NCBI GenBank assembly: GCA_963701085.1
Contig: OY969561.1
Span: forward strand, 544,001 to 608,000
DNA from: an uncultured bacterium
Lineage (GTDB): Bacteria > Babelota > Babeliae > Babelales > Vermiphilaceae
Direction of reading: 5' to 3'
Length of the DNA: 64,000 bases
Shown here: positions 4,531-56,456 of the stretch, piece by piece
How positions within the stretch are numbered: the first letter of the stretch is position 1
Layout of the letters: every line of letters starts with the position of its first letter
Position numbers and translations under genes: made by a program
Notes under the pieces: model-generated
What the model was told of the DNA's origin: nothing
Database searches by the model: none
The model's input: only the letters and a program-made list of their open reading frames with translations

Positions 4531-5793
4531 ATGAAAAATAAAAAAATTTATCTCATTATCCTGATTACTGCCGCCCATGCGGCATTTGCTATTGATAATC
4601 CTCATTTTTATCGTGCTACCAATATGTTTCTTGAGCCACGGCTTGAACATGACTACCTCACCACTTTTATCGCAACATTGGGAGGAGGAACTACTACCGA
4701 GGGACGCTCAAAAAACAATACCATAGTGCCACTACTCGATATATATGGCACCCACAACATCCAAGAATTGAACATTAACACCGCATTCACAAACCCCAAT
4801 AAACCTTACGACTTACTGCTCAATAACCTTGCACAACTGCCAAACAGACCTAATTTTGCAACAATTTCAATTGATGGAAAGTTTAATATCATAGAATCAA
4901 ACCTTTCATTTGCGCAAAACCTTGCTCACGGACTGTTCCTTTTCTTTTATTTACCGGTCAGAAGACTTAAAATAACTGATATTGGCATTACCGATCTTTC
5001 CCCGGACGACCAAACATTCCCTAACAAGCATACCCCTGAATGGCAAACCGTATGGCAGACACTCAATCCCCTTTTAACCAATTATGGCATCAATAGCTGT
5101 TCAACAATAAGCACGGGGGTTGGCGATCTTACCTCATGGTTAGGATGGACACATAACTATCAAGACACAACCACTATCGATTTTGTTGATGTTACCGTTA
5201 TGGCTGGATTCCTTGCTCCTACCGGTAAAGAACGCAACGAAAATAAACTCTTTTCACTCCCAACAGGCTACAATGGTCATTGGGGATTGCCGTTATGCGC
5301 AATGCTCTCGGTTGGCTGGTATGAATGGGTAACTGTTGGCGGATATCTCAACACGCTTTTTTTTACAAACAAAAATCACACCATGCGCCTCAAGACAGAT
5401 ATAGCGCAAAATGGCATCATAAAGCTCGCGTGCGGCGATGTTTCTGTACACAAAGGGCCACTCATCAACACAGGAGTTTATTTTAAAGCAGACCATTTTG
5501 GCCATGGATTTTCATTCACCACTGCTTATTCATTTGCTTCTCAACAAAAAGACCATCTTACACCAAAAAATCCAGCACTCTTTGATCGCTCCATTATTAA
5601 CAGCGACCAAACACTTGCTGGCTGGAATATGCATACCTTTAATTTTTCGCTTGAATATGATTTTTCCCGTGAAGGTAAAAACGTTGGCAACCGCATCGGC
5701 CTATTCTATAACCTTCAAATAGCGGGCGCAAGAACGTTTAACACCAACGTCACCGGCGGCACATATGGCATTGATATTGGCTGGTATATTTAA
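4531..5793 (+). CDS. Exported hypothetical protein, possible outer-membrane beta-barrel
   Basis: Signal peptide AAFA|; alternating aromatic beta-strand pattern; C-terminus GIDIGWYI. Confidence 0.6.
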   Translation: MKNKKIYLIILITAAHAAFAIDNPHFYRATNMFLEPRLEHDYLTTFIATLGGGTTTEGRSKNNTIVPLLDIYGTHNIQELNINTAFTNPNKPYDLLLNNLAQLPNRPNFATISIDGKFNIIESNLSFAQNLAHGLFLFFYLPVRRLKITDIGITDLSPDDQTFPNKHTPEWQTVWQTLNPLLTNYGINSCSTISTGVGDLTSWLGWTHNYQDTTTIDFVDVTVMAGFLAPTGKERNENKLFSLPTGYNGHWGLPLCAMLSVGWYEWVTVGGYLNTLFFTNKNHTMRLKTDIAQNGIIKLACGDVSVHKGPLINTGVYFKADHFGHGFSFTTAYSFASQQKDHLTPKNPALFDRSIINSDQTLAGWNMHTFNFSLEYDFSREGKNVGNRIGLFYNLQIAGARTFNTNVTGGTYGIDIGWYI

Positions 5794-6476: not shown

Positions 6477-7031
6477 CTAGAAGGGCAAGTTATCTTCAAA
6501 TGGAGGTTCATCCTGAAAATCAATCTCGCCGGTTGAAGGAGCTTCTTCTTTTTTAACTGCTTTGGTCGCTTTAACACGTGTTTGCGCTTTTTCTAATTGC
6601 GCGAGCAAATCACGCTCAACAGCGTTGTTTGGATTAAGCTGAACACCAGCATCAGATTCATCTGCTAATGATGCACCAAATGCAGTTTCGGCCGAAGCGC
6701 CATTAGAAAGAAAGACAACACGCTCTGCAACAATAGAATGCTTGCTACGTTTTTGGCCTGTTTGATCATCCCATGAGTCTAATTTAAGACGACCTTCAAT
6801 CAGTACTGGACGACCTTTTTGCAAATACTGACGACAGCTTTCCGCTTGTGCGCCCCAAACATCAACATCAATGTAGCACACTTCTTGTACCAAATTGCCT
6901 GTTTGCTTATTTTTGAATTGACGATTGGTTGCTAATCCAAGACGGCATACCGCTTGCCCAGATGCAAGATTACGGTATTCAGGATCTCTTGTTAAATTAC
7001 CAATCATAATAATGCGATTAAACGCTGCCAT
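6477..7031 (-). CDS. ssb: Single-stranded DNA-binding protein
   Basis: NRIIMIGNLTRDPE, KGRPVLIEGRL, acidic tail ending DNLPF. Confidence 0.95.
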   Translation of the reverse strand: MAAFNRIIMIGNLTRDPEYRNLASGQAVCRLGLATNRQFKNKQTGNLVQEVCYIDVDVWGAQAESCRQYLQKGRPVLIEGRLKLDSWDDQTGQKRSKHSIVAERVVFLSNGASAETAFGASLADESDAGVQLNPNNAVERDLLAQLEKAQTRVKATKAVKKEEAPSTGEIDFQDEPPFEDNLPF

Positions 7032-7125
7032 ATCTCGGACCTTCACTCACGCTAAGATGTATACATTATTAATACCACTTGTTTTTGATAATAGCAGAAA
7101 AATATCTTTTGCTAAGCGCTATTTT

Positions 7126-8724
7126 TTAATGAGCTACTCCCAAAAATGAATATTTCCTAAACATATCCTCAACTATCCGTCGTTTAGCTGCAACATCATA
7201 TTCTTGCAATTCAATCATCTCAAGATCACCTATAAAATCGGCTCTCACATTTAATGGGACTTCTTTTTCTGCACGTTGTTTTAAATTGTGGACTAAATAG
7301 ATCATCTTGCCATAACGTTCATCATCAAGCGGCCTTGTTTGATCAACAAAAAGAGAATTAATGTCAACCAATGCTCGACGTATTTGACTGTACTCTTTTA
7401 TAGTAAACTTTTTATAACTACTATACCCAAGCCAACTAACAAATGCTGCTGGTGTCAGCAACACAAGATCTCTCACGCCCTTAAACTGCTTCTGTTCTGC
7501 TTCAATCGCATCTAAAATAAGCTTCAGAACATCTTCACCTATACTCACTCCAAACAAGAGAAAAAAGTCTATTAATCCATGCGCATAATCACTCTGACTA
7601 GCTAACCATTCTATAACACTTTGTATTGATGCCGTCGGTTGCAAAACAGACATTTTTGATGGATCCAACTTTTCCTTTTTTGCTATGTTTCCCAAAAATT
7701 TTAGAAATTCTTTATAATCACCCTTATCCATACCATCATTAATTATTCTTGGCTCACCTAGTCCATATTTTTTACTCATATCAATCACAAATTGTTTAGC
7801 CTCGTCTAATGAGACATTTTTAGTATTAGCTAATGATGGAAGCATTACGCTCACTTTCTGCTTAGTTGTATTTTCCGGAAAAAGAACATTTATACTTCTC
7901 TTGACGGGCATCATAATCGGATCATAAACATTAACTTTTAAAGATTCAAATGCCGCTTGCAATTGATCAAAACTAATATTTTTATATCCATAGCCCAAGC
8001 CAAACATCAACGCCCCATACTTCAACCAGTTACGCTCAAAATGGACAGGAATCTGAGTGTCAGACATTTCTGATAAAATATCATTTTTAAAACGCCGGAC
8101 TTTTCCAAGCTTTAATCGTAACAACATCACTCGTGTAATAAATGGCGAGCTTTCATCACTATCCTGAGTATCTACTTTTATACGCGGCAATAAATCCAAT
8201 AATTCATCTATCCACGCATAGCCTTTTTCATAATCTTGCACAAAGACCGTTTTTCGTTGATGATCATAAACATTACCCAACTGCGCAAGCTGTCCCAATA
8301 AGACATACAACTCACCCTGATGACTTTGCAGTTGCTCAAGATTATTTTCTATCTCTTCTTTCTGTGACTTGCCCGTAACCCATTTAAGTGGACTTTTAGT
8401 TAAAAAATACCGCCACTGATGATTTCTTTGATCCTGCCAATATTTAATACGAGCATCAATTTCTTGTAATGCTGCTAATATTTGCGCATACGCATTGTCA
8501 TATAAAACTTTTGCGCATTTAACGAGCGCACCACTTTGCACTTTTTTATACACGTGCTCAGCTGCAACATCCTCTGAAAAATTACTCGTCACCCTTCGCA
8601 AATAAGACAAGGCGTCTGCTATTGTAGAAATAGTCACTTGCGGTGCAGGATGTGCTGCCTGGCAAACGCCACCGATGGTAAAAAAAGAAACTATTACCGC
8701 AACTCTTTTAATCAATATATTCAC
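7126..8724 (-). CDS. NCA2/DGS1-like exported/membrane protein, paralog 1
   Basis: Probable GTG start at 8724 after a GGGGG RBS; signal peptide; YWQDQ..YFLTKSP, PVHFERNWLKY, LLTPAAF, YGKMIYLVHNL, KRRIVEDMFRKYSFL. Confidence 0.6.
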   Translation of the reverse strand: MNILIKRVAVIVSFFTIGGVCQAAHPAPQVTISTIADALSYLRRVTSNFSEDVAAEHVYKKVQSGALVKCAKVLYDNAYAQILAALQEIDARIKYWQDQRNHQWRYFLTKSPLKWVTGKSQKEEIENNLEQLQSHQGELYVLLGQLAQLGNVYDHQRKTVFVQDYEKGYAWIDELLDLLPRIKVDTQDSDESSPFITRVMLLRLKLGKVRRFKNDILSEMSDTQIPVHFERNWLKYGALMFGLGYGYKNISFDQLQAAFESLKVNVYDPIMMPVKRSINVLFPENTTKQKVSVMLPSLANTKNVSLDEAKQFVIDMSKKYGLGEPRIINDGMDKGDYKEFLKFLGNIAKKEKLDPSKMSVLQPTASIQSVIEWLASQSDYAHGLIDFFLLFGVSIGEDVLKLILDAIEAEQKQFKGVRDLVLLTPAAFVSWLGYSSYKKFTIKEYSQIRRALVDINSLFVDQTRPLDDERYGKMIYLVHNLKQRAEKEVPLNVRADFIGDLEMIELQEYDVAAKRRIVEDMFRKYSFLGVAH

Positions 8725-8881
8725 AACTACCCCCTTTACATAAAAAAAAATAATCTCTGTCCTCAAGCATATCTCATACGGCTTGCGGCAATCTAGACTA
8801 TTATTCAAAAAAAAGTGTGACCCTCCTGCGCCGCGACTAGGCGGACAGGCAATCACACTTTTAATAATCATTCAAAAATTT

Positions 8882-10654
8882 TTATGCTGCGATACGTCCC
8901 AAAAATGCGTATTTATTAAACATATTTTCAACAATACCACGCTTTATTTGTGGATCATATTGCTTTGATTCAAGCTTTGCCACATCAGTTAAAAATTCAT
9001 GCGATAATGGATCTTTAAGAGAATGTGCTTTATGGCGTAATTTATAAATTAAATACACCAACTTGCCATAATCATAATCATCAAGTTGTGCAAATGATTC
9101 TATTAAAAGAGAGTTAACATCAGCAAGTGCTATGCGTATTGGTGAATAATTTTTCTTGACGGCCCATTGATATGTCTTTGCACTACCTATACAAGCAGCA
9201 GCTAGCGGAGTAAATGCAGCAAGTTTTGCCGTCCAAAAATTGTTTTTAACAAAATCACCTACAACATTACCACCATCAACAATCAACAACCCTATTTCTT
9301 TGATTAATGGAACAATTTTTTTATCGATAAGCTCTGGATAATCTTGTAATAATGTCAATAACTCATCAACCACTAAAAGAATTCGCACTTCTTCTTGATC
9401 AAGACGATCATCATAATAATAAAAGGAAGTCTTTTCAGTTAACTCATTCAGCTTTTTCAAATTATTATTCGCCACATCCTGCATAATCTCTTCTTTATTA
9501 GCAACTTTCATTTTTGTTAGCGTTGTTTCCAATATCTTTTGGGCATATTGTCGCAATGACTCTGCACTCTTTTTAGTTAAAATCGCCACATTTGATTCTA
9601 TATCATTTGCTAATTTTTCTATCTCATCAACCCTTTTTTCAATATTATCAATTGAACTTTTTGAATCAATACCAAAGAAAACTTGATACAAATCCGTCAT
9701 TGGATCAATGACAACACTTTCAACAACTCCTTGAGCAAAGGAAACTGTTTTTTTAAATGCAGCTGGTAAAACCTTAGGGTTATTTGAATGATAATGCACC
9801 GCATACCCTGCTGCCGCCAAGATTGTTGTATATGCAATCCAATTACGTACAAAATGATTTGGCTGCCTGGCTGAAGCCATTGATACAAGAGAGTCACTCT
9901 TTAATGAACCAACATATTTAATTTTTAACCCTAGTTCAGCGGCAATAGCATCAAATTTGGTCCCATCAAAACTGTAGTTAGATGACACTTTTAGACAAGA
10001 CAAAATAGCAAACAACTGTTCTATCCAGACATAACAGTCATCATACATAACACCCGTTTCAGTAAATGCATGAGCATGTTCAGTAAGCAATCCTAATAGA
10101 GTGTATAACTCACGCTGTTTACGCTCTAATTTAATCAAATTATTGGTGATCTCTTTTGCCTGAGGCTTACCCATAATCCATTTTATAGGAGACTTATGAA
10201 AAAAATAATCCAACTGATGATGATGCTGATCACGCCAATAGCAAATAACATTATCAATTTCCTCTAATGCACTCAAAAGCTCGTTACGCGCATCGTTCAA
10301 AAAAACATGCGCGCAGGTTAATAACAGCGCGCTTGATATTTGTTCATATCGTTTATACACATCACTCTCAGCGGTTTCTACTTTTACCATCTCTTGATGA
10401 GCGGAACGAATGCGTGCAAGCAATGCAGTATGAGAAAAATCACCATAATTTTTAAACAGATAACGTAACTCTTTTTTATATGACACATTATCATCAACAT
10501 ATCGCTGAGGACCCTGCATGCAATGAGCATCGGTATATTTTATATAGCGAGTTACCGCTTGCTTAAATTCAATGGAAGATTTATGCCCTGATCCAGTACA
10601 CAAAGAAAAACTCAAAAAAGATACAATTAACAACTTATTTATTGGTATATTCAC
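8882..10654 (-). CDS. NCA2/DGS1-like exported/membrane protein, paralog 2
   Basis: Signal peptide; YWRDQ..YFFHKSP, QPNHFVRNWIAYT, VIDPM, LAAFTPL, YGKLVYLIYKL, KRGIVENMFNKYAFL. Confidence 0.6.
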   Translation of the reverse strand: MNIPINKLLIVSFLSFSLCTGSGHKSSIEFKQAVTRYIKYTDAHCMQGPQRYVDDNVSYKKELRYLFKNYGDFSHTALLARIRSAHQEMVKVETAESDVYKRYEQISSALLLTCAHVFLNDARNELLSALEEIDNVICYWRDQHHHQLDYFFHKSPIKWIMGKPQAKEITNNLIKLERKQRELYTLLGLLTEHAHAFTETGVMYDDCYVWIEQLFAILSCLKVSSNYSFDGTKFDAIAAELGLKIKYVGSLKSDSLVSMASARQPNHFVRNWIAYTTILAAAGYAVHYHSNNPKVLPAAFKKTVSFAQGVVESVVIDPMTDLYQVFFGIDSKSSIDNIEKRVDEIEKLANDIESNVAILTKKSAESLRQYAQKILETTLTKMKVANKEEIMQDVANNNLKKLNELTEKTSFYYYDDRLDQEEVRILLVVDELLTLLQDYPELIDKKIVPLIKEIGLLIVDGGNVVGDFVKNNFWTAKLAAFTPLAAACIGSAKTYQWAVKKNYSPIRIALADVNSLLIESFAQLDDYDYGKLVYLIYKLRHKAHSLKDPLSHEFLTDVAKLESKQYDPQIKRGIVENMFNKYAFLGRIAA

Positions 10655-10745
10655 CAGTGTTCCTTATTGCAAAAAATGCGTATACAACGCGCATAATATC
10701 TATTTATATTATACCAGAAAAAATGAATTAGGAAAGCTACTTATT

Positions 10746-11162
10746 TTATTCAGACTGAATTTTTGAAACTTCTGCACGTAAAAACTCAAGACGCTGCTGC
10801 AACTTTTGTATCTCATCATTGCAACGCTCCAATTGGCACATTACCTTAGTTCGTTTTTGATGATAATCTGTCCGGCAGCTTTTACTCGCTTGCTTTAAAA
10901 AAGAATCTTTCTCTCCATCAGCATAGCCACTCAATAGATCAAGAGCCTCTTGTTGGACAACGTCAGTAGTTGATCGTAAGGCATTAACTGACCTATTAAG
11001 ATTATTTACTATAACAACAATATCGCTCTCAATTTCTATACATTGCTGCTCAGAGACATATTTCTTTTTATTTTTTGGCAGCGTAATAGACTCTTGTTCA
11101 ACAGAACAAGCACTACACATACCAATTACCATTACCAAAAGATTGATATACCGTTTTTTCAT
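10746..11162 (-). CDS. Putative lipoprotein, coiled-coil
   Basis: MKKR, hydrophobic stretch, CSAC lipobox-like. Confidence 0.65.
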   Translation of the reverse strand: MKKRYINLLVMVIGMCSACSVEQESITLPKNKKKYVSEQQCIEIESDIVVIVNNLNRSVNALRSTTDVVQQEALDLLSGYADGEKDSFLKQASKSCRTDYHQKRTKVMCQLERCNDEIQKLQQRLEFLRAEVSKIQSE

Positions 11163-11168
11163 ATCTTT

Positions 11169-11786
11169 TTATTTCCCACTATTAATCATGCGCAAGCCTA
11201 TCCGCGCATATTGCCCAAATGACGCACTAATAAAGAGTATCATAACGCCAAGCATTGTATAATAGGTCTTAATGGGCATCCAGCAAAAAAAATAACAGGC
11301 AAAAAGCCACATAATAAATATCATCTGGATACAGGTAGTTGTTTTTCCAAGAATTGTCGGCTGTACGTTCAAATGACCACGCAAGCGATAAATAACAAAG
11401 GCCCCCACAATTTGTATCACCTCTTTACCCACCACAAAAAGCACAAACCAGCGTGGAATAGAAAACAGTGGCGTAGTTACAAAAGCTAACGTGAAAAAGC
11501 AGGATATCAGCAGTAATTTATCTGCTATTGGATCAAGACAAGCACCAAGAAATGTTTTTTCATTCAACAAACGGGCCAAAAGGCCATCAATAACATCGGT
11601 AAAACAGGCAAAAACAAAGAAAAAAAATGCGCACCCCCACCAACCAATAATCATGGCGCCAATTATTATTGGAACTAAAATTATTCGCAAAAGCGTAAAA
11701 AGCGTTGGAATGGTAATACGCTTTTCTGCATCTGGTAAGCGTTTGAAAATGCGTAACGTAAATCGAGATAGGTTAATTTTTTTCAT
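11169..11786 (-). CDS. pgsA: CDP-alcohol phosphatidyltransferase (PgsA/cardiolipin synthase-like)
   Basis: TIPTLFTLLR; DVIDGLLAR...GACLDPIADK signature. Confidence 0.8.
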   Translation of the reverse strand: MKKINLSRFTLRIFKRLPDAEKRITIPTLFTLLRIILVPIIIGAMIIGWWGCAFFFFVFACFTDVIDGLLARLLNEKTFLGACLDPIADKLLLISCFFTLAFVTTPLFSIPRWFVLFVVGKEVIQIVGAFVIYRLRGHLNVQPTILGKTTTCIQMIFIMWLFACYFFCWMPIKTYYTMLGVMILFISASFGQYARIGLRMINSGK

Positions 11787-13029: not shown

Positions 13030-13230
13030 ATGCAAAAAAGAGAATTAGCTAAATTTCTTTCCGGTGTCGCTGTTGCTAAAGTAGGATGCCATGCAGTGTT
13101 AGCCGCAAGTAATGTATTACCACTTACTTTATTAGGATGCACTATTTCCGTTAATTGTAATTTTTGGATGCTTATAATCTGGACTGCCGCAGCGATATTT
13201 CTAATCCACTATGCCTGGTTCAAAAAATAA
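13030..13230 (+). CDS. Small two-TM membrane protein
   Basis: 66 aa, GAGGA RBS, two hydrophobic segments, coupled to dipZ. Confidence 0.6.
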   Translation: MQKRELAKFLSGVAVAKVGCHAVLAASNVLPLTLLGCTISVNCNFWMLIIWTAAAIFLIHYAWFKK

Positions 13231-13232
13231 AC

Positions 13233-14873
13233 ATGATTATACTGCTCATTTTTGCTTTTTTCGCGGGCTTTATAACGATTTTATCACCATGTATTCTTTC
13301 TATTGCCCCAATTTTACTTGCCGCAAGCGCAGAAGAAAGCCGCTATAAACCACTTGGAATCATTGCCGGTTTGATTATCAGCTTTTCATTTTTTACGTTA
13401 TCACTAACGGCCATTGTACAAGCAACCGGCATATCTCCTGATATTTTTCGCTCTATTGCACTTGGAATGATCATATTTTTTGGCTTAACTATGATCATTC
13501 CATTTTTTGAAAATACATTTGCTCTTTTTACCGCATACATCGCGCGCATAGGAAGCTCCCTACAAGAACATGCAATTCCAATAAAAACAGAACTTATTAG
13601 CGGACTATTGATTGGTATTGCACTTGGTTTACTGTGGACTCCCTGTGCAGGACCTATTTTAGCAACAATCACTACTATTGCTGCAACAGAAGGCGTTACC
13701 TTGACTTCCATATTGATCATCCTTGCATACAGTATCGGCGCAGCAATACCCATGCTATTACTCTGTTTTGGTGGTGCAAAAATTATAAACTCCACAACCG
13801 CTCTTGCACCCTACGCGCACACCATTCGCCAAATCTTTGGGATCATCATTATTACCAGCGCTTTAGCAATTATTTTCCATGCTGATACGTTTATCCAAGA
13901 AAAAATTGCGCACCTGTTCCCCTCTATTGATATTGAAAAAAGTAGTAGACTACAAAAGGAACTCAGCATGCTCAAAAAAACACCTTCTCAAAACACAAAT
14001 AATCAGGCGCCCGAACTAGTCGGCATTGCTGATTGGCTTAACTCACAACCTCTTACCCTCGCACAGCTCAAAGGCAAAGTAGTACTTCTTGATTTTTGGA
14101 CATACACCTGCATTAACTGCATTCGCACATTGCCGCACGTCGTTGAATGGTACAAATCCTACAAAGATAAAGGCCTAGAAATAATTGGCATTCATACACC
14201 AGAATTTGCTTTTGAAAAAAACAAAACACATGTAGAAGATGCCATAAAAAGATTCAACATCACCTACCCGGTAGCTCTTGATAATGATTATAAAACATGG
14301 CAGGCATATGATAACCATTACTGGCCAGCACACTATTTGATTGATCAAAATGGCATGATTGTAAAAACACATTTTGGTGAAGGTAATTATGTAGAGATGG
14401 AAAATGCTATATGCGCATTGCTCAAGTTACCCGCATGCACCAAAAAAGATGAGCTCCCATTCCGCAAGGAACTTACCCCCGAAACATACCTTGGTTTTGA
14501 ACGTGGCGACCATTACCAACCAACACTACCGATACAAAAAAATGCACCTGCTCTCTACCAATCAACAGAACCTCTTGGCGATGATAAGGTTGGCCTTACT
14601 GGCACATGGACCGTTACAGCCGACCACATTCATAGTGAAACCGATAACAGTGAAATTACATTAAATTTTATCGCAAATCATGTGTACATTGTCATGCAGT
14701 CAGACAAGCCTCAACAAGTATCCATACTTCTTGATGGCAAAAAAGAAGGCACCATTTTAGTACATGAACCACGCGCATATGAAGTCATTGATCTAAAAGA
14801 AAATTACGGCAGACACACGTTAACACTGCAATGCAACAAAGATATCAACGCGTATGTATTCACTTTTGGCTAA
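13233..14873 (+). CDS. dipZ: DipZ (CcdA-like TM domain + thioredoxin-like domain)
   Basis: LSPCIL, WTPCAGPIL, DFWTYTCINC, HTPEF, TPETYLG; ATG at 13233 preferred. Confidence 0.9.
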   Translation: MIILLIFAFFAGFITILSPCILSIAPILLAASAEESRYKPLGIIAGLIISFSFFTLSLTAIVQATGISPDIFRSIALGMIIFFGLTMIIPFFENTFALFTAYIARIGSSLQEHAIPIKTELISGLLIGIALGLLWTPCAGPILATITTIAATEGVTLTSILIILAYSIGAAIPMLLLCFGGAKIINSTTALAPYAHTIRQIFGIIIITSALAIIFHADTFIQEKIAHLFPSIDIEKSSRLQKELSMLKKTPSQNTNNQAPELVGIADWLNSQPLTLAQLKGKVVLLDFWTYTCINCIRTLPHVVEWYKSYKDKGLEIIGIHTPEFAFEKNKTHVEDAIKRFNITYPVALDNDYKTWQAYDNHYWPAHYLIDQNGMIVKTHFGEGNYVEMENAICALLKLPACTKKDELPFRKELTPETYLGFERGDHYQPTLPIQKNAPALYQSTEPLGDDKVGLTGTWTVTADHIHSETDNSEITLNFIANHVYIVMQSDKPQQVSILLDGKKEGTILVHEPRAYEVIDLKENYGRHTLTLQCNKDINAYVFTFG

Positions 14874-18911: not shown

Positions 18912-19592
18912 ATGAATATTTTTTCTGGCAACTCCCTCTGGCAACTTGTTTATCAATCAGATACGGTCAGTAAATGTGTACTGCTTATATTATTCGGCAT
19001 GTCTGTTATATGCTGGGCAGTTTTTATTGGCAAACTTGCACTGCTACAGATAAAAGAACGACAATTCAAAGATATAAATAAAAAAGCTCAACAAATAAAA
19101 ACCATTACCGATCTTGTTGATATCACCGCAACCGCTCGCAACACTGCACCAAGTTATTTTATTACCAAAAACCTCGCATTCCTCAAAGAGCTTTGCGTGG
19201 GTAACCAAGGGCAGAAAATTGACGATAATCAATGGGAACTGCTCGAAAGATATATCGATAACTCAATTGAAGCAATGCTCCTACATAATGAAGAATACAT
19301 AGCAATACTCTCATCAAGTGCTGCCGTTGCGCCACTACTTGGTCTCTTTGGAACTGTATGGGGACTTGTACATTCATTCATGCGCATTAGTGAAACGCAA
19401 GTTGCTGATATTGCAACCATTGCACCTGGTATTGCAGAAGCGCTTATTACTACACTTGCAGGATTAGTTGTTGCAATTCCGGCGCTTATTATGTTCAACT
19501 ATTTACACACTAAAACACGCGCATTAGAACATAGTCTTATCACACTCGCGGACCGAATGACATTTATTTTTCAGCAACTTCGTGGAAGGTAA
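18912..19592 (+). CDS. tolQ: TolQ/ExbB proton channel protein
   Basis: APLLGLFGTVWG, APGIAEALITTLAGLVVAIPA. Confidence 0.9.
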   Translation: MNIFSGNSLWQLVYQSDTVSKCVLLILFGMSVICWAVFIGKLALLQIKERQFKDINKKAQQIKTITDLVDITATARNTAPSYFITKNLAFLKELCVGNQGQKIDDNQWELLERYIDNSIEAMLLHNEEYIAILSSSAAVAPLLGLFGTVWGLVHSFMRISETQVADIATIAPGIAEALITTLAGLVVAIPALIMFNYLHTKTRALEHSLITLADRMTFIFQQLRGR

Positions 19593-19596
19593 ATAG

Positions 19597-20043
19597 ATGC
19601 GTACACGCAAAAACAGACGAACCAACCGCCAAAAAAACGGCTTGTATGATCTTTCCATGACACCATTAATTGATACAGCGCTCACGTTGTTAATTATTTT
19701 TATGGTAGCAACCCCCGTATTACAAAATGCAATCAAAGTAACCCTACCACGGGGCAATGCGCAAGAAGATGCATCCAACACGCAACAAGAACTGGTTGTG
19801 TTCATTGATAAACAAGGTGATTTTTATATTAATAAAGACAAAATTGCAAAAAAAGACCTCATTGTTCAGATAAAAAAAACTGTCGGCAATGATCATGAAA
19901 AAACAGTGTATGTAAAAGCTGATACAGCAATATCATACGGAACAGTAATTGAATTAGTTGACGATATTAAATTTGTTGGTGGTATAAAATATGTGGCTCT
20001 GGCAACGCAAAAACATTCACAAACGACACCTTCTTTGGGCTAA
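19597..20043 (+). CDS. tolR: TolR/ExbD
   Basis: MTPLIDTALTLLIIFMV; VYVKADTAISYG. Confidence 0.9.
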   Translation: MRTRKNRRTNRQKNGLYDLSMTPLIDTALTLLIIFMVATPVLQNAIKVTLPRGNAQEDASNTQQELVVFIDKQGDFYINKDKIAKKDLIVQIKKTVGNDHEKTVYVKADTAISYGTVIELVDDIKFVGGIKYVALATQKHSQTTPSLG

Positions 20044-20869
20044 ACTTTTTGGCCTATGCCTGTTGTTCCATCTTATTTTTTTGTTTTGGATATTTTGTGT
20101 GTATCGCGATAACAGCTATATACTCTCAATTTCCATAAATAAAAAATTGGATTATTCTGCGCCCATATACTTTGTACCTCTTGGCACGCCCTACTCCGCT
20201 AAAAGTAGAATTTATCCTGAGCCTGTCGAAGGGAAGGGCAAGCCCCCTCGTACAACGCACAACAAACCTGCTGCAACACAAGTCCCCGTTAAAAAAACAA
20301 CACCCGTGATCCAGGCAAAACCAGTTACTGTTGTAACCCCAAAGAAAACTACCGAGCCAATAAAAAAAGAACTTCCAAAAACAGAAATTAAAAAAATAGA
20401 AGAAGTGAAAAAAGAAATTCCAAAAGTTGAACCAAAAAAAGAAGTTAAACCAACGCAACAAGCTGCTCCTGTTGTTGAACCACCAAAACCAGAACCAATC
20501 AAAACAACTGCTGCACAAAAAACGCAATCACCCATTGCCCAAGCGCTTGATACGCAACAAACAATTGCACCAGTGATCCCTGAAAACGCACAGATATCTC
20601 ACAACTATCGTGAAGTTGAAGCATTACGCCGTAGCGCACAATTACAAAAAGAGTTGGTGCAAAAATGGAAACCACCAATTGGCGTATCACCAGACTGCAT
20701 GTGTGAAATCTCTTTCTTTGTCAATTCAACTGGCGCAATAGAGGATTTAAAAATGGTAAAAAGTTCCGGTGTGGTGATGTATGATATTTCTGCACGCCAA
20801 GCGCTGTTTGCAATGAAGATGCCGCAATGGTCATATGGAAAACCTTTTACCATTAGCTTTAAGCAATAA
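19991..20869 (+). CDS. tolA: TolA/TonB-like protein with in-frame repeat insertion
   Basis: TM helix with conserved His, Lys/Pro-rich linker, C-terminal KSSG..YD domain; lies between tolR and tolB. Confidence 0.75.
   Translation: MWLWQRKNIHKRHLLWAKLFGLCLLFHLIFLFWIFCVYRDNSYILSISINKKLDYSAPIYFVPLGTPYSAKSRIYPEPVEGKGKPPRTTHNKPAATQVPVKKTTPVIQAKPVTVVTPKKTTEPIKKELPKTEIKKIEEVKKEIPKVEPKKEVKPTQQAAPVVEPPKPEPIKTTAAQKTQSPIAQALDTQQTIAPVIPENAQISHNYREVEALRRSAQLQKELVQKWKPPIGVSPDCMCEISFFVNSTGAIEDLKMVKSSGVVMYDISARQALFAMKMPQWSYGKPFTISFKQ
20189..20242. repeat. Composite B/A palindromic element inside tolA
   Basis: 54 nt ccctactccgctaaaag...tcctgagcctgtcgaagggaagggcaag; near-copy at 37324-37378. Confidence 0.8.
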
Positions 20870-20889
20870 ATGATTTAATCAGGAAATAA

Positions 20890-22173
20890 ATGAAAAAATT
20901 ATACGCATTATTATTATGCACAGCATTACATATCTCAGCCGATGAAATTGAAATCGCCGTATCAGGCGCACAACAAGCACAAATGCCCATTGCTCTTATA
21001 GTTCTGGATGAAAAAAACAGTGAACTTAACGATATTGCCACCATCATAAAAAAAGATTTACAATTTACCGATCAATTCAAGCCATCTATTAAAAAATGTG
21101 ATGCTCATTTACCAAAAAAAACATTGCGCAAACATATACAAAAATTGTCTCAGACAGACACACCACTGGCACTCTGCATCAGTAGCGAATCTAAAAACAA
21201 TATTACATGGCGGTTATATGATACTATGCAATGCACCATGATATGTGGAAAAAAATACACAAAACATGGCTCAATTGTGCGCGGATGGGCGCATACCATT
21301 GCTGATGAAACATGGAAAGCGCTGACGAGCAATGATGGTTTTTTTTCTTCACGAATAGCATATTGTAAGGATTCAAAAAACGATAAAGGACACACCATCC
21401 GCAAAGTGTACATAGCCGATTTTGATGGCAGCAATGAAGAACTCCTTGTTGATCTACCCACTATCACCGTTGCACCTCGCTGGCACACCAAAAAACCACG
21501 CCTCACGTATTCGGAATATGCCAATACCAATGTAGAATTGATGTCTGTTGGCATGGATAAGAAGAGAAAACCTCTTTCAACTTTTGATGGCATTAATATG
21601 CTTGCAGGCTTTTCACCAAGCGGAAAATCAGTAGCGTATTGCGCCTCACGCGGAAGTGGTAGTTGCCAAATCTACCTACGTAACAATGGCAATCTAAAAC
21701 GCTGCACCAAAAATACCGGCAACAATACTTCCCCTATTTTTATTGATGACAATCACCTCTGCTTTTGCTCAGATTTTCAGACGGGTAATCCGCAAATTTA
21801 TATCGGCAATATTCAAACCGGCCATCTTCAGCGCATTACCCATGGTGGTTATTGCACATCACCAAGCTACTGTCCAAAAACGCATAAAATTGCTTACCAC
21901 AAAATGATCCATAGCACCATGCAAGTTATGATGTATGACTGCACAACCAAAAGTCATACACAGTTAACTAAAACAAGCGGCAATAAACACGAAGTCAGCT
22001 GGTCTCCCGATGGTACACACCTGCTTTTTGCACACGAAATTCCTGATAAAAATAGCCGCTTATGCTCACTCAACCTCTTAATGAGCACGACAAAATATAT
22101 AACCAGCACAAACGATGAATGTAGCTACCCTCACTGGGGGCCTTGTTATAAGGAATTTCCTGTTGTAACCTAA
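20890..22173 (+). CDS. tolB: TolB
   Basis: Signal peptide, TolB N-domain (AHTIAD, GFFSSRIAY), PD40 repeats (SWSPDG). Confidence 0.9.
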   Translation: MKKLYALLLCTALHISADEIEIAVSGAQQAQMPIALIVLDEKNSELNDIATIIKKDLQFTDQFKPSIKKCDAHLPKKTLRKHIQKLSQTDTPLALCISSESKNNITWRLYDTMQCTMICGKKYTKHGSIVRGWAHTIADETWKALTSNDGFFSSRIAYCKDSKNDKGHTIRKVYIADFDGSNEELLVDLPTITVAPRWHTKKPRLTYSEYANTNVELMSVGMDKKRKPLSTFDGINMLAGFSPSGKSVAYCASRGSGSCQIYLRNNGNLKRCTKNTGNNTSPIFIDDNHLCFCSDFQTGNPQIYIGNIQTGHLQRITHGGYCTSPSYCPKTHKIAYHKMIHSTMQVMMYDCTTKSHTQLTKTSGNKHEVSWSPDGTHLLFAHEIPDKNSRLCSLNLLMSTTKYITSTNDECSYPHWGPCYKEFPVVT

Positions 22174-24815: not shown

Positions 24816-25511
24816 ATGAAAAAATACATTATTATCTTAGCCATCCTTGCCTTGTTTTTAATTTATTACCTTCAACGCAGTAAAAAAGCGTCACAACCTC
24901 AAACAGGAACTATCATCATACTTAATGGCCCATCTGCTGCAGGAAAGTCATCTATTCAAAAACAATTTCAAAAAATAAGTGATGAATTATATTTAACTGT
25001 TGGCATAGACGGCCTCTTTGATTCTATCCTGCCTGATGTTGATGAAAATGGTAAATCAATCAAGAATAATGAAACAATCCGATGGATTGAATTTGGCAAA
25101 GATAAAAACGAACATCAAACCATAACATTACATATTGGTCCAGCTGGGTATCGAGTTATCAAAGGAATGCACCGCGCAATAGCTGCATATGCCAAACAAA
25201 ATAACAACATAATAATGGACTACATCTTATATGATTCATCATGGCTACCAGATTTAATTAATACGCTCAAGAATTATAAAGTTTATCTTGTTGGCATTCA
25301 CACACCACTAGAGGTAATAGAACAGCGAGAAAGCAAACGAGGAACATCGCCAATTGGTCATGCACGCAGCCACTATCACACAGTACATGAAGGTATGATA
25401 TATGACCTTGAACTCGATACTTCTTTGAATACCCCTGAAGAACTCGCACAGCAAATAAGAAACTTTGTACAAAACAATCCATCTCCTCAAGCTCTCAAAA
25501 AATTAATATAA
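24816..25511 (+). CDS. Chloramphenicol phosphotransferase (CPT)-like P-loop kinase with N-terminal anchor
   Basis: IIILNGPSAAGKSS, RESKRG, YDLELDTS. Confidence 0.85.
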   Translation: MKKYIIILAILALFLIYYLQRSKKASQPQTGTIIILNGPSAAGKSSIQKQFQKISDELYLTVGIDGLFDSILPDVDENGKSIKNNETIRWIEFGKDKNEHQTITLHIGPAGYRVIKGMHRAIAAYAKQNNNIIMDYILYDSSWLPDLINTLKNYKVYLVGIHTPLEVIEQRESKRGTSPIGHARSHYHTVHEGMIYDLELDTSLNTPEELAQQIRNFVQNNPSPQALKKLI

Positions 25512-28506: not shown

Positions 28507-29238
28507 TTAAAAACCAAATCCACCAAGAGATCGTGAACATATCGAGCATTTTTTGTCTCTCATACCATCATAACAATTAATACAGATAAAATTACCCAGA
28601 TGTCTATTAACACATGGAATGTTAGATAAATAATATCGATGTGTTTTACACACAAAACATGCTTGCATATTAAACAACTTAATCATCTTCGGCCTCATTG
28701 GATGTTTCATAGGAATTTTAAAATAAATATTTTTATTAACTGCCGCACCATACAACAACAGTTTTTTTATCACATCTTTATTAGACTGTTCTACAGCATA
28801 ACAGAGTGGGCTGTTACCATAACTATCATATATATTAACGCGCGCTCCACCCTTTAAAAGATCTAAATATTTATCACCATCATTCTGTGCAATTACCCTG
28901 CATAACAAAAGTCTCCCTGCGATATCATACACATCAAGATCAAATCCACTATGCACTAATTTCTTAAGAGATGCATACTTGAACAATTCTTTTGTTGAAA
29001 CTGCAATAAACGCATCGGCAAAGCTTCGGTGCACACAAGAAAGCGCTTTATCATCTTCATGCCCAAACAAAACAGAGGGATTATTTTTAATGATATCTAC
29101 CACGTCATCAATATTACCATAGTCAAAGGCTCTTATAAGCGCTGTTCGAGCTATCTGCTTATCAGTAACTGAATTCATCCCTATGATAGTGCCCGCACTC
29201 ATTATGCACCATAAAAACAGATATATTTTAATTTTCAA
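28507..29238 (-). CDS. Exported ankyrin-repeat protein with C-terminal RING-like zinc finger
   Basis: Probable TTG start at 29238; GNSPLCYAV..LLLYGAAVN; C-x2-C-x11-C-x3-H-x5-C-x2-C-x8-C-x2-C. Confidence 0.8.
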   Translation of the reverse strand: MKIKIYLFLWCIMSAGTIIGMNSVTDKQIARTALIRAFDYGNIDDVVDIIKNNPSVLFGHEDDKALSCVHRSFADAFIAVSTKELFKYASLKKLVHSGFDLDVYDIAGRLLLCRVIAQNDGDKYLDLLKGGARVNIYDSYGNSPLCYAVEQSNKDVIKKLLLYGAAVNKNIYFKIPMKHPMRPKMIKLFNMQACFVCKTHRYYLSNIPCVNRHLGNFICINCYDGMRDKKCSICSRSLGGFGF

Positions 29239-29333
29239 ATTGTCCCTCAATTGCTCTGTAATGCGCATCTTACCCATTATCTAAAAATATAATAAAAATT
29301 AGCGTATTTGCCAATCAGAACACAATCGTCACT

Positions 29334-55496: not shown

Positions 55497-56456
55497 TTAT
55501 GCTAAGCGCTCTACTGCTATAGCAGCATTCGCATTCAATTGCGTTCCTCCTGCAAGAGTTTGCAATGTAACTGCAGAAGCTGAACTATGATTACGGAGAG
55601 TTATAACATCACCTGCACCTAAAGTTAATGTACCAAAGCCCGTATTTTGTTGAGTACCTGCACCTGAACCGTATATGGTACCAGGAGCACTTGGAGCACC
55701 ATTGATAAAGATTGAAAATTGATTCGGCTCTACACCAGACACAGAATAAGTAATTCTATAAATACCTGCATTTACGACAATAAGCTGTGAAGTTCCTGGC
55801 GTATGCGTAAATCCAGCGAGAATCCCATTGGTATCAAAAAGAACGTCTGCTTCTATAGCAACTGTTGCTTCACCAGTGAGGTTATAAATATATGCAAAAT
55901 CTGATATACCACCCGCTGCTCCTGTTGCGCCTGTAGCTCCTGCTGCTCCCGTTGCTCCCGCAGCACCAGTCGAGCCACTTGCTCCCGCGGCACCAGTCGA
56001 ACCAGTTGCTCCTGTTGCTCCAGGACAACAAGGACCTGTTGCACCAGTTGATCCTATACTACCTGTAGCACCCGCTGAACCAGTTGCCCCAGTAGCTCCT
56101 GTTGGCGCTCCACTTGGACCAGTTGCACCAGTTGCTCCCGTTGATCCGGTTGATCCAGTTGATCCGGTATCACCTTTTCTTCCTCTTTTACCTCTATCTC
56201 CCTTTTTACCTTTCTCACATTTGTGATTGCAACCAACTGGTTTAAAACAAGAATCCACCGTGTCTTTACAGCTATTTTGACAATTTTTTGTTGCATCATT
56301 ATTAACAATAGCTTGCGCCAAATCCATTTTAAAACGATCTATGCGTGCTATCTCTTTTCCACAATTTTCAGAATCTCGTGAATAAGAATAATTGTGTGTT
56401 ACCAACAAACATAACCCTAACAATGCTGCTGATAATTTTCCAATTTTTGACTGCAT
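55497..56456 (-). CDS. Collagen-like surface protein with BclA-type C-terminal domain
   Basis: Signal peptide, G-X-T triplets (GATGAT), [18 protein letters not shown]. Confidence 0.8.

Follow-up and report, generated by a model that had tools for sequence, protein, structure and literature searches.

The yeast protein Nca2 (nuclear control of ATPase 2) is known from a phenotype in the expression of ATP6 and ATP8, subunits 6 and 8, and we know of no molecular activity for either Nca2 or its plant counterpart DGS1. In the passages that concern it, Arabidopsis DGS1 (DGD1 SUPPRESSOR1) is described as the plant Nca2 ortholog (PMC7050145, PMC7865480) and as a protein of the mitochondrial outer membrane that connects TOM40/TOM20 with MIC60 and influences lipid composition (PMC10069894, PMC7865480). 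Nca2 itself is treated there as a eukaryotic mitochondrial factor that most lineages have retained (PMC7050145, PMC10214729). Here we describe two adjacent minus-strand genes, A and B, from an uncultured, obligate intracellular member of the Babeliales, which encode bacterial relatives of this family. They lie in a window of 64,000 nucleotides (contig OY969561.1, positions 544,001 to 608,000), by which we mean the whole stretch of DNA analyzed and to which all positions below refer; the source genome consists of one 1.2-Mb contig.

Full-text literature searches (NCA2 combined with Babeliales, TM6 or Dependentiae, and PF08637) returned no paper on bacterial members of the family, in agreement with the first-pass annotation of this DNA, which a model had made from the sequence alone and which knew of no characterized bacterial member. 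Many of these proteins already carry the Pfam NCA2 label in the sequence collection, where it was assigned automatically. What is new here is a large and old branch of the family that is restricted to the Babeliales among named matches, its predicted signal for the general secretory (Sec) pathway, its homology with the eukaryotic proteins over nearly the full length, and its tandem duplication in one genus. A family that has been connected with the biogenesis of ATP synthase, with MICOS/TOM bridging and with lipid homeostasis now has bacterial relatives to study, which provide several hundred divergent sequences for defining the positions under real constraint and a prokaryotic setting for mapping topology and partners. 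The branch is also a candidate for explaining how obligate energy parasites of protists handle their own membranes or those of host mitochondria.

Homology of A and B with eukaryotic Nca2

The two genes are neighboring open reading frames (ORFs) at 7126..8871 and 8882..10654, as the first-pass annotation had placed them. The longest ORF of A opens at ATG 8871, and the public record (P0003) is that 581-residue form. However, the real start of A is most likely GTG 8724, 49 codons downstream, because AAGGGGG stands seven bases ahead of it and the N-termini of homologs lie at the equivalent position. The features that define the pair are:

8882..10654, minus strand: paralog B, 590 residues, NCA2/DGS1 family, predicted signal sequence at the N-terminus
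10660..10665, minus strand: putative ribosome-binding site AAGGAA (read from the sequence), six bases ahead of GTG 10654 of B
7126..8724, minus strand: paralog A, 532 residues from GTG 8724, NCA2/DGS1 family, predicted signal sequence at the N-terminus
8730..8736, minus strand: putative ribosome-binding site AAGGGGG (read from the sequence), seven bases ahead of GTG 8724 of A
8909..9145, minus strand: Pfam NCA2 match in B, model positions 198-289
7150..7464, minus strand: Pfam NCA2 match in A, covering the second hydrophobic helix and the C-terminal four-helix bundle

A and B are tandem paralogs. They align co-linearly by BLASTP in two blocks, one of 228 residues (36% identity, E 2e-39) and one formed by the last 111 residues (41% identity, E 3e-20). 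Both contain, in the same order, the motifs YW..Q/YF..KSP, P.HF.RNW followed by a Gly/Tyr/Ala-rich stretch, V.DP, ..TP.. within a hydrophobic stretch, YGK..YL and, at the C-terminus, D..LE..YD...KR.IVE.MF.KY.FL. Every motif that had been listed for the two paralogs in the first-pass annotation was thus found in both translations.

The resemblance to NCA2/DGS1 proposed in that annotation was also upheld when the proteins were compared with the Pfam NCA2 model (PF08637, gathering cut-off 20.6 bits). The model matched A with 27.5 bits (E 2.2e-6, model positions 164-289) and B with 20.6 bits (E 2.8e-4), which is exactly the cut-off, and B scored 16.2 bits in a six-frame search of the genome. With these low scores A and B stand at the weak end of the family, other members of which give much stronger matches. 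Matches at E <= 0.01 were obtained in 66 of 201 genomes of the phylum, 48 of them above the cut-off, and the best of these reached 77.7 bits over model positions 7-289. When 66 distant homologs from the representative library were scanned, 42 scored above the cut-off, and the two best matches, at 118.1 and 94.1 bits, spanned the whole model. The 14 control genomes gave no match.

Sequences of this kind bridge the distance to the eukaryotic proteins. One distant homolog (P0142), compared with 5.8 billion proteins, retrieved a fungal protein annotated as Nca2 (E 5.3e-12), and 27 more eukaryotic members were gathered starting from this fungal protein (Kickxellomycotina, Mortierellomycota, Glomeromycota, a chytrid, one JGI protein and Ectocarpus). 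In a profile-profile alignment with hhalign, 56 Babeliales sequences matched 12 eukaryotic Nca2 proteins (fungal and algal) at 99.95% probability (E 8.1e-38) over 439 columns, with bacterial columns 70-535 aligned to eukaryotic columns 122-686. A control with 21 close orthologs of A, and hence without the strongly NCA2-like bridging sequences, still gave 99.08% (E 1.3e-18) over 426 columns. Since the alignment takes in the N-terminal YW region, which is outside the Pfam domain, the homology is nearly full-length. Compared directly by BLASTP, A and fungal Nca2 are only marginally similar (E 0.042), and the link between them is therefore one at the level of profiles.

The AlphaFold2 model of A, built from a 148-row alignment, is all-helical (predicted local distance difference test score, pLDDT, 82.9; predicted template modeling score, pTM, 0.70). 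It has long N-terminal helices (residues 53-230), a less confident, variable middle (250-415) and a C-terminal four-helix bundle (442-532), with pLDDT of 90-98 over residues 441-530. Foldseek found nothing at E <= 1e-3 for this model among either PDB structures or viral models. VIA-align against 48,161 chains returned only generic four-helix bundles on residues 440-532, with Z <= 9.4, which is inside the noise range stated for helical models. Sequence-profile searches of the PDB with the eukaryotic and the bacterial family profiles gave 0 matches, and the ESM Atlas had no usable match.

Yeast Nca2 and its fungal and protist orthologs have the same co-linear arrangement as the bacterial proteins, with the YW motif, P...R.W, two segments at matching positions that are hydrophobic to differing degrees (a proline is at the center of the second) and a C-terminal bundle of the form F..DL..LE...K....M.(K/R)..FL, and invariant W, P and G positions recur in bacterial and eukaryotic members. 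The bacterial proteins differ in having a predicted Sec-type signal, in being 100-200 residues shorter and in the weaker first hydrophobic segment. The likeness to DGS1 is drawn from its description in the literature, the eukaryotic sequences compared here being those of fungi, Ectocarpus and the one JGI protein. We regard it as virtually certain, from the sequence comparisons, that A and B belong to the Nca2/DGS1 family by homology. A chance or compositional likeness of two helical, low-complexity proteins to NCA2, without common ancestry, could appeal to the marginal BLASTP value and to structure searches that yielded generic helical bundles only, but the co-linear profile-profile match (426-439 columns, E 1e-18 to 8e-38), the bridging Babeliales sequences at 60-118 bits over the whole Pfam model, the retrieval of fungal Nca2 by one of them (E 5e-12), the invariant positions common to both kingdoms and the 0/14 control genomes leave it next to no credibility, and the two hhalign values (8e-38 and 1e-18) rule it out for practical purposes.

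Distribution, phylogeny and chromosomal setting

A word search identified 69 homologs of A and B, and 209 representative clusters were found at E <= 1e-3; the source names all read "hypothetical protein". Where an organism is named, it is Candidatus Babeliales, TM6 or Dependentiae, the exception being one locus labeled "uncultured Pseudomonadota", and these names agree with the assignment to Dependentiae made in the first-pass annotation. The restriction to Babeliales rests on these named matches, as most of the 209 clusters are nameless, and the sampling outside the phylum comprised the 14 control genomes, one pattern-limited scan (6 loci) and nameless metagenome proteins. Scans of viral contigs with the bacterial and eukaryotic alignments confirmed no relative.

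A profile of the Babeliales family, against which B scores 491 bits, matched 85 of the 201 phylum genomes at E <= 1e-5. Among the 191 genomes of the order that are at least 90% complete, 80 had a match and in 111 none was found; the weakest accepted matches were near E 1e-6, and very divergent copies may be missed. In these genomes the occurrence of the NCA2-like gene is nearly all-or-none by family:

Families with the gene: f2 (8/8), f4 (13/13), f5 (13/13), f17 (4/4), f18 (2/2), f12 (7/9)
Families in which none was found: f8 (0/26), f10 (0/22), f7 (0/8), f3 (0/4), f13 (0/4), f9 (0/3)

The family of the window's genome (f1) is divided by genus, with 31 of 62 genomes carrying the gene. All nine sampled genomes of the window's own genus have it, and in eight of the nine it is present as the tandem pair.

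Phylogenetic analysis was based on an unrooted tree of 51 rows, of which 10 are eukaryotic (nine fungi and one brown alga). Five A-type and five B-type proteins each form a clade (Shimodaira-Hasegawa-like approximate likelihood ratio test, SH-aLRT, 100) and the A and B clades are sisters (90), dating the duplication to about the origin of the genus. The 10 eukaryotic rows are all on one side of a branch with an SH-aLRT of 99. As the tree is unrooted and its eukaryotes are fungi and a single brown alga only, no direction of transfer follows from it. A bolder possibility is that the family passed from a Babeliales-like parasite into early eukaryotes and not the reverse. With the bacterial branch, gene exchange between eukaryotes and a parasite lineage that is among their oldest becomes a question open to dating.

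The genes that surround the pair in the window are in the order mnmA, a PgsA-like CDP-alcohol phosphatidyltransferase gene, a small ORF of 138 residues, B, A and ssb, and the features next to the pair are:

11169..11786, minus strand: CDP-alcohol phosphatidyltransferase (PgsA-like); Pfam 101.5 bits, E 7.6e-29; NCBIfam pgsA 71 bits, below the cut-off of 109
10746..11162, minus strand: 138-residue ORF with lipobox-like N-terminus and coiled-coil tail; position kept within f1; no Pfam or NCBIfam family
10671..10694, minus strand: inverted repeat with T-run in the gap between the small ORF and B, read from the sequence; the same stem is reported on the plus strand
6477..7046, minus strand: single-stranded DNA-binding protein (Ssb), downstream of A; NCBIfam ssb 142.8 bits; adjacency kept in f1

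This order is retained in five other genomes of the genus. Two other f1 genera have the same order with a single NCA2-like gene, and in a third genus the ssb adjacency alone is retained, the contig ending there. In f2, f4, f17 and f18 the NCA2-like gene is instead located beside mutS and a divergent rplU, near trkA/trkH. From this conserved housekeeping synteny we conclude that the NCA2-like gene is a long-standing resident of the core chromosome. The GC content of the A/B locus is similar to that of the remainder of the window.

The first-pass annotation was correct in placing pgsA-type and lipobox-like genes upstream of the pair on the same strand, but the argument for a lipid module that it built on them is weak. 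Adjacency to pgsA was seen only in f1, and the check for synteny with pgsA across the Dependentiae that the annotation had put forward found the gene beside mutS and rplU elsewhere. Genes of the CDP-OH_P_transf family are present in 181 of the 191 genomes of the order, including every genome of families that have no NCA2-like gene (f8, 26/26; f10, 22/22; f7, 8/8). Conversely, they were not found in 8 of the 13 f4 genomes, although all 13 carry the NCA2-like gene. A pgsA-linked lipid module as a general property of the family was rejected on these grounds, the adjacency being confined to f1 and the two genes showing no co-occurrence.

The NCA2-like gene evolves much faster than its neighbors. 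Within the genus, identity is 42-47% for A and 46-63% for B, vs. 75-90% for Ssb, 80-85% for MnmA and 78-82% for PgsA. Between genera of f1 the NCA2-like proteins are only 22-25% identical, compared with 56-58% for Ssb, 63-64% for MnmA and 48-55% for PgsA.

B is separated from the 138-residue ORF by a 91-bp spacer of its own, which holds the hairpin with its T-run and, just upstream of it, the sequence TATAAT (also read from the sequence). This separation is a further point against a general coupling of the NCA2-like gene to pgsA. The inverted repeat is a possible terminator or regulatory hairpin; a scan for promoters and terminators gave counts no higher than in shuffled sequences. No NCBIfam family was found for A or B. 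In a search of sequencing runs, those listed were all of metagenome DNA and shared only part of the words, and none was of RNA.

Two further observations concern the copies in other genomes. The family profile matched two f1 genomes of genus g14 (G044 and G080) at three or four places each, a second locus among them, which points to additional paralogs beyond the window's genus. The family-profile match contains one in-frame stop or is split into N- and C-terminal pieces in many genomes of f5 and f4 and in two of f1, and these broken matches could be split genes, decay or alignment overrun:

f5: G009, G014, G026, G029, G034, G073, G092, G109, G193
f4: G008, G016, G063, G089, G102
f1: G095, G108

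Predicted export, membrane segments and possible roles

Signal sequences and membrane segments were judged from Kyte-Doolittle hydropathy (KD; KD12 and KD19 for windows of 12 and 19 residues) and, for the signals, from AXA-like ends. The segments recognized in A and B are:

8656..8724, minus strand: predicted signal sequence of A, residues 1-23, CQA end before AHP; KD 1.99 over residues 3-21
10586..10654, minus strand: predicted signal sequence of B, about residues 1-23; KD 1.59 over residues 1-19
7978..8028, minus strand: first segment of A, residues 233-249, a Gly/Tyr-rich helix (in the model) after P.HF.RNW; aligns with the first segment of eukaryotic Nca2
7402..7473, minus strand: second segment of A, residues 418-441, a hydrophobic helix with a central proline (LLTPA); aligns with the second segment of eukaryotic Nca2

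Both N-termini consist of a short basic stretch, 11-15 hydrophobic residues and then small residues, and in orthologs of A and of B the hydrophobic stretch is followed by AXA-like ends. The N-terminal signal peptides proposed from the first reading are therefore present as a Sec-like pattern in both proteins. A 12-residue window with KD >= 2.0 precedes the YW motif in 116 of 148 family members, in 104 of them within the first 45 residues, and most of the remaining 32 score 1.8-2.0. No hydrophobic window (KD19 >= 1.1) occurs in the first 100 residues of the eukaryotic proteins inspected, and a predicted Sec-type signal therefore sets the bacterial branch apart. A and B are accordingly described here as predicted to be exported by way of this signal and presumably cleaved. 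B as a lipoprotein was considered and rejected, since its cysteine is not conserved in orthologs.

The two internal segments differ in strength. For the first, the KD19 has a median of 0.67 in the bacterial proteins and 1.2 in the eukaryotic ones, with 0.40 in A and 0.64 in B. For the second, the medians are 1.58 and 1.68, and the values for A and B are 1.09 and 1.16, respectively. A KD19 of at least 1.2 is reached here by 88% of the 148 members; the central proline (P425 of A) is nearly invariant in the family. Lysine and arginine are richer on the C-terminal side of the second segment in 80 of 148 rows and on the N-terminal side in 35, a bias that weakly suggests a cytoplasmic C-terminus. 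The variable middle of a 706-residue homolog (P0163, residues 456-562) has a weak likeness to apolipophorin-III (25.5 bits, below the cut-off of 36.3), which is described as a lipid-binding amphipathic helix bundle.

Our favored reading, to which we assign a probability of roughly 0.4 for the whole statement including its mechanism, is that the proteins are Sec-exported, membrane-anchored scaffolds of the parasite's own envelope. The branch would have been inherited vertically in the Babeliales since an ancient exchange with eukaryotes, in either direction. The Sec signal would carry the large helical N-terminal domain across the inner membrane, and the proline-containing hydrophobic helix would then retain the protein in the inner membrane of the bacterium itself, on the side of the periplasm, which is the topological counterpart of the mitochondrial intermembrane space. 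In this position the protein would, if plant DGS1 is a guide to its homologs, serve as a helical scaffold without enzymatic activity that organizes the envelope, be it in membrane contacts or in lipid or protein homeostasis. The anchoring step is suggested by the second helix, which in most members is as hydrophobic as the eukaryotic segment and should therefore stop transfer. The synteny, the window-like GC content and the clade structure point to a resident, non-mobile gene.

Like DGS1, the bacterial protein would sit in the envelope of a compartment with two membranes; unlike DGS1, which is reported in the outer membrane, it would enter via Sec from the cytoplasm, and its anchor is expected in the inner membrane. 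The mitochondrial outer membrane, TOM/MICOS and ATP6/8 features of the family cannot apply literally to a bacterium, which, unlike the cell in which Nca2 acts, has no mitochondrial mRNA to regulate. Alphaproteobacterial homologs of Mic60 (mitofilin) work in the bacterium's own membranes and offer a precedent for a contact-site protein with bacterial relatives, but they are a different family. The Nca2-like family, moreover, was found here in Babeliales only, and not in the lineage ancestral to mitochondria as Mic60 is. A search of the window's genome with Pfam Mitofilin found none.

Several points weigh against an envelope scaffold. The hydrophobic helices of A and B are weak, and both proteins could be soluble after export. 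The gene is dispensable, as it was not found in 111 of the 191 genomes that are at least 90% complete, whole families included, and thus fits a host-specific accessory better than a core part of the envelope. Its divergence within the genus (A 42-47% and B 46-63% identity, against 75-90% for Ssb), the lack of a phyletic link between NCA2-like and pgsA-type genes and the fact that an MlaD lipid-transport protein is already encoded in the genome are further such points. In addition, the roles of DGS1 and Nca2 themselves are poorly defined.

The main alternative, which we consider rather unlikely, is that the protein is a secreted host mimic; the first-pass annotation had likewise put forward an exported factor acting at contacts with host mitochondria or the vacuole. 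After Sec export such a mimic would be released from the cell through type II secretion or within outer-membrane vesicles and reach the host mitochondrial outer membrane. There it would, with the same low likelihood, insert or dock in place of host Nca2/DGS1, take over the TOM-MICOS bridge and tether, reshape or draw mitochondria around the ATP-importing energy parasite. The model for such a role is Legionella LncP, a mitochondrial-carrier mimic; effectors of this type use type IV secretion and are without Sec signals. The likeness is that a mitochondria-typical family is encoded by an intracellular parasite of protists. The difference is that a Sec signal is predicted here and that the gene is old, vertically inherited and in core synteny.

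Several observations favor this idea. All named homologs retrieved outside the Babeliales are eukaryotic Nca2 annotations, and reviews, in the passages that concern them, place DGS1 and Nca2 in mitochondria (PMC7050145, PMC10069894, PMC7865480). Babeliales are reported to import host ATP, and one cultured member of the phylum to replicate wrapped in a host mitochondrion, inside an invagination of it, and to bud vesicles, with 44% of its proteins bearing signal peptides (PMC6561590). The core functions of the phylum are described as including type II secretion, with two gspD genes (PMC4776705), and in the window's genome the Pfam Secretin model matched twice (127.8 and 104.9 bits). However, type II substrates are soluble, and most members of the family keep a helix of eukaryotic grade (median KD19 1.58) that Sec would be expected to leave in the inner membrane, even if the weakened segments of A and B would ease their release from it. 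Fast evolution, a patchy occurrence by lineage and duplication are what a host mimic might display, but the gene resides in housekeeping synteny and not in a variable effector region. The missing Mitofilin (Mic60-like) match in the window's genome also counts against a mimic, albeit with no bearing on the host's own Mic60.

By analogy with the genetics of yeast Nca2, the protein might also help to assemble or express the F-type ATP synthase of the bacterium itself, and the window's genome does encode subunit a of this enzyme. We consider this very improbable. Subunit a is present in 190 of the 191 genomes whereas the NCA2-like gene is present in 80, which means that the NCA2-like protein is not a needed partner, and the idea was rejected on this phyletic pattern. 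The gene is also not adjacent to atp genes, and the predicted export would take the protein away from transcription and translation. The remaining probability falls to functions outside those weighed here.

Other features of the window

Several other genes in the window deserve mention, two of them close to the A/B locus. The first (4531-5793, plus strand) encodes a 420-residue protein with a signal-like N-terminus and the C-terminal sequence ...GIDIGWYI. Neither Pfam nor NCBIfam has a family for it. Its identity is 67-72% within the genus and 38% to the form in another genus, and it is always near the A/B locus; it looks like a lineage-specific outer-membrane beta-barrel. The second (13164-14873, plus strand) encodes a 569-residue fusion of a DsbD-like membrane domain, a ResA/TlpA-type thioredoxin and a further C-terminal part, and is, to judge from these domains, a periplasmic thiol-disulfide system.

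A Tol-Pal cluster (18912-22173, plus strand; a TolQ-like MotA_ExbB protein and TolB) is followed by FtsH, in a stretch of the chromosome rich in envelope genes. Among housekeeping genes we noted a chloramphenicol-phosphotransferase-like kinase (24816-25511, plus strand; Pfam CPT, E 4.6e-42) and an ankyrin-repeat protein (28507-29277, minus strand). A 319-residue protein (55497-56456, minus strand) combines collagen triple-helix repeats with a BclA-C-like domain, the latter below the cut-off, an architecture that occurs in exosporium or giant-virus fiber proteins. Finally, GC skew is negative in 30 of 32 bins of 2 kb (cumulative -4.5), and the whole 64 kb is therefore on one replichore arm.

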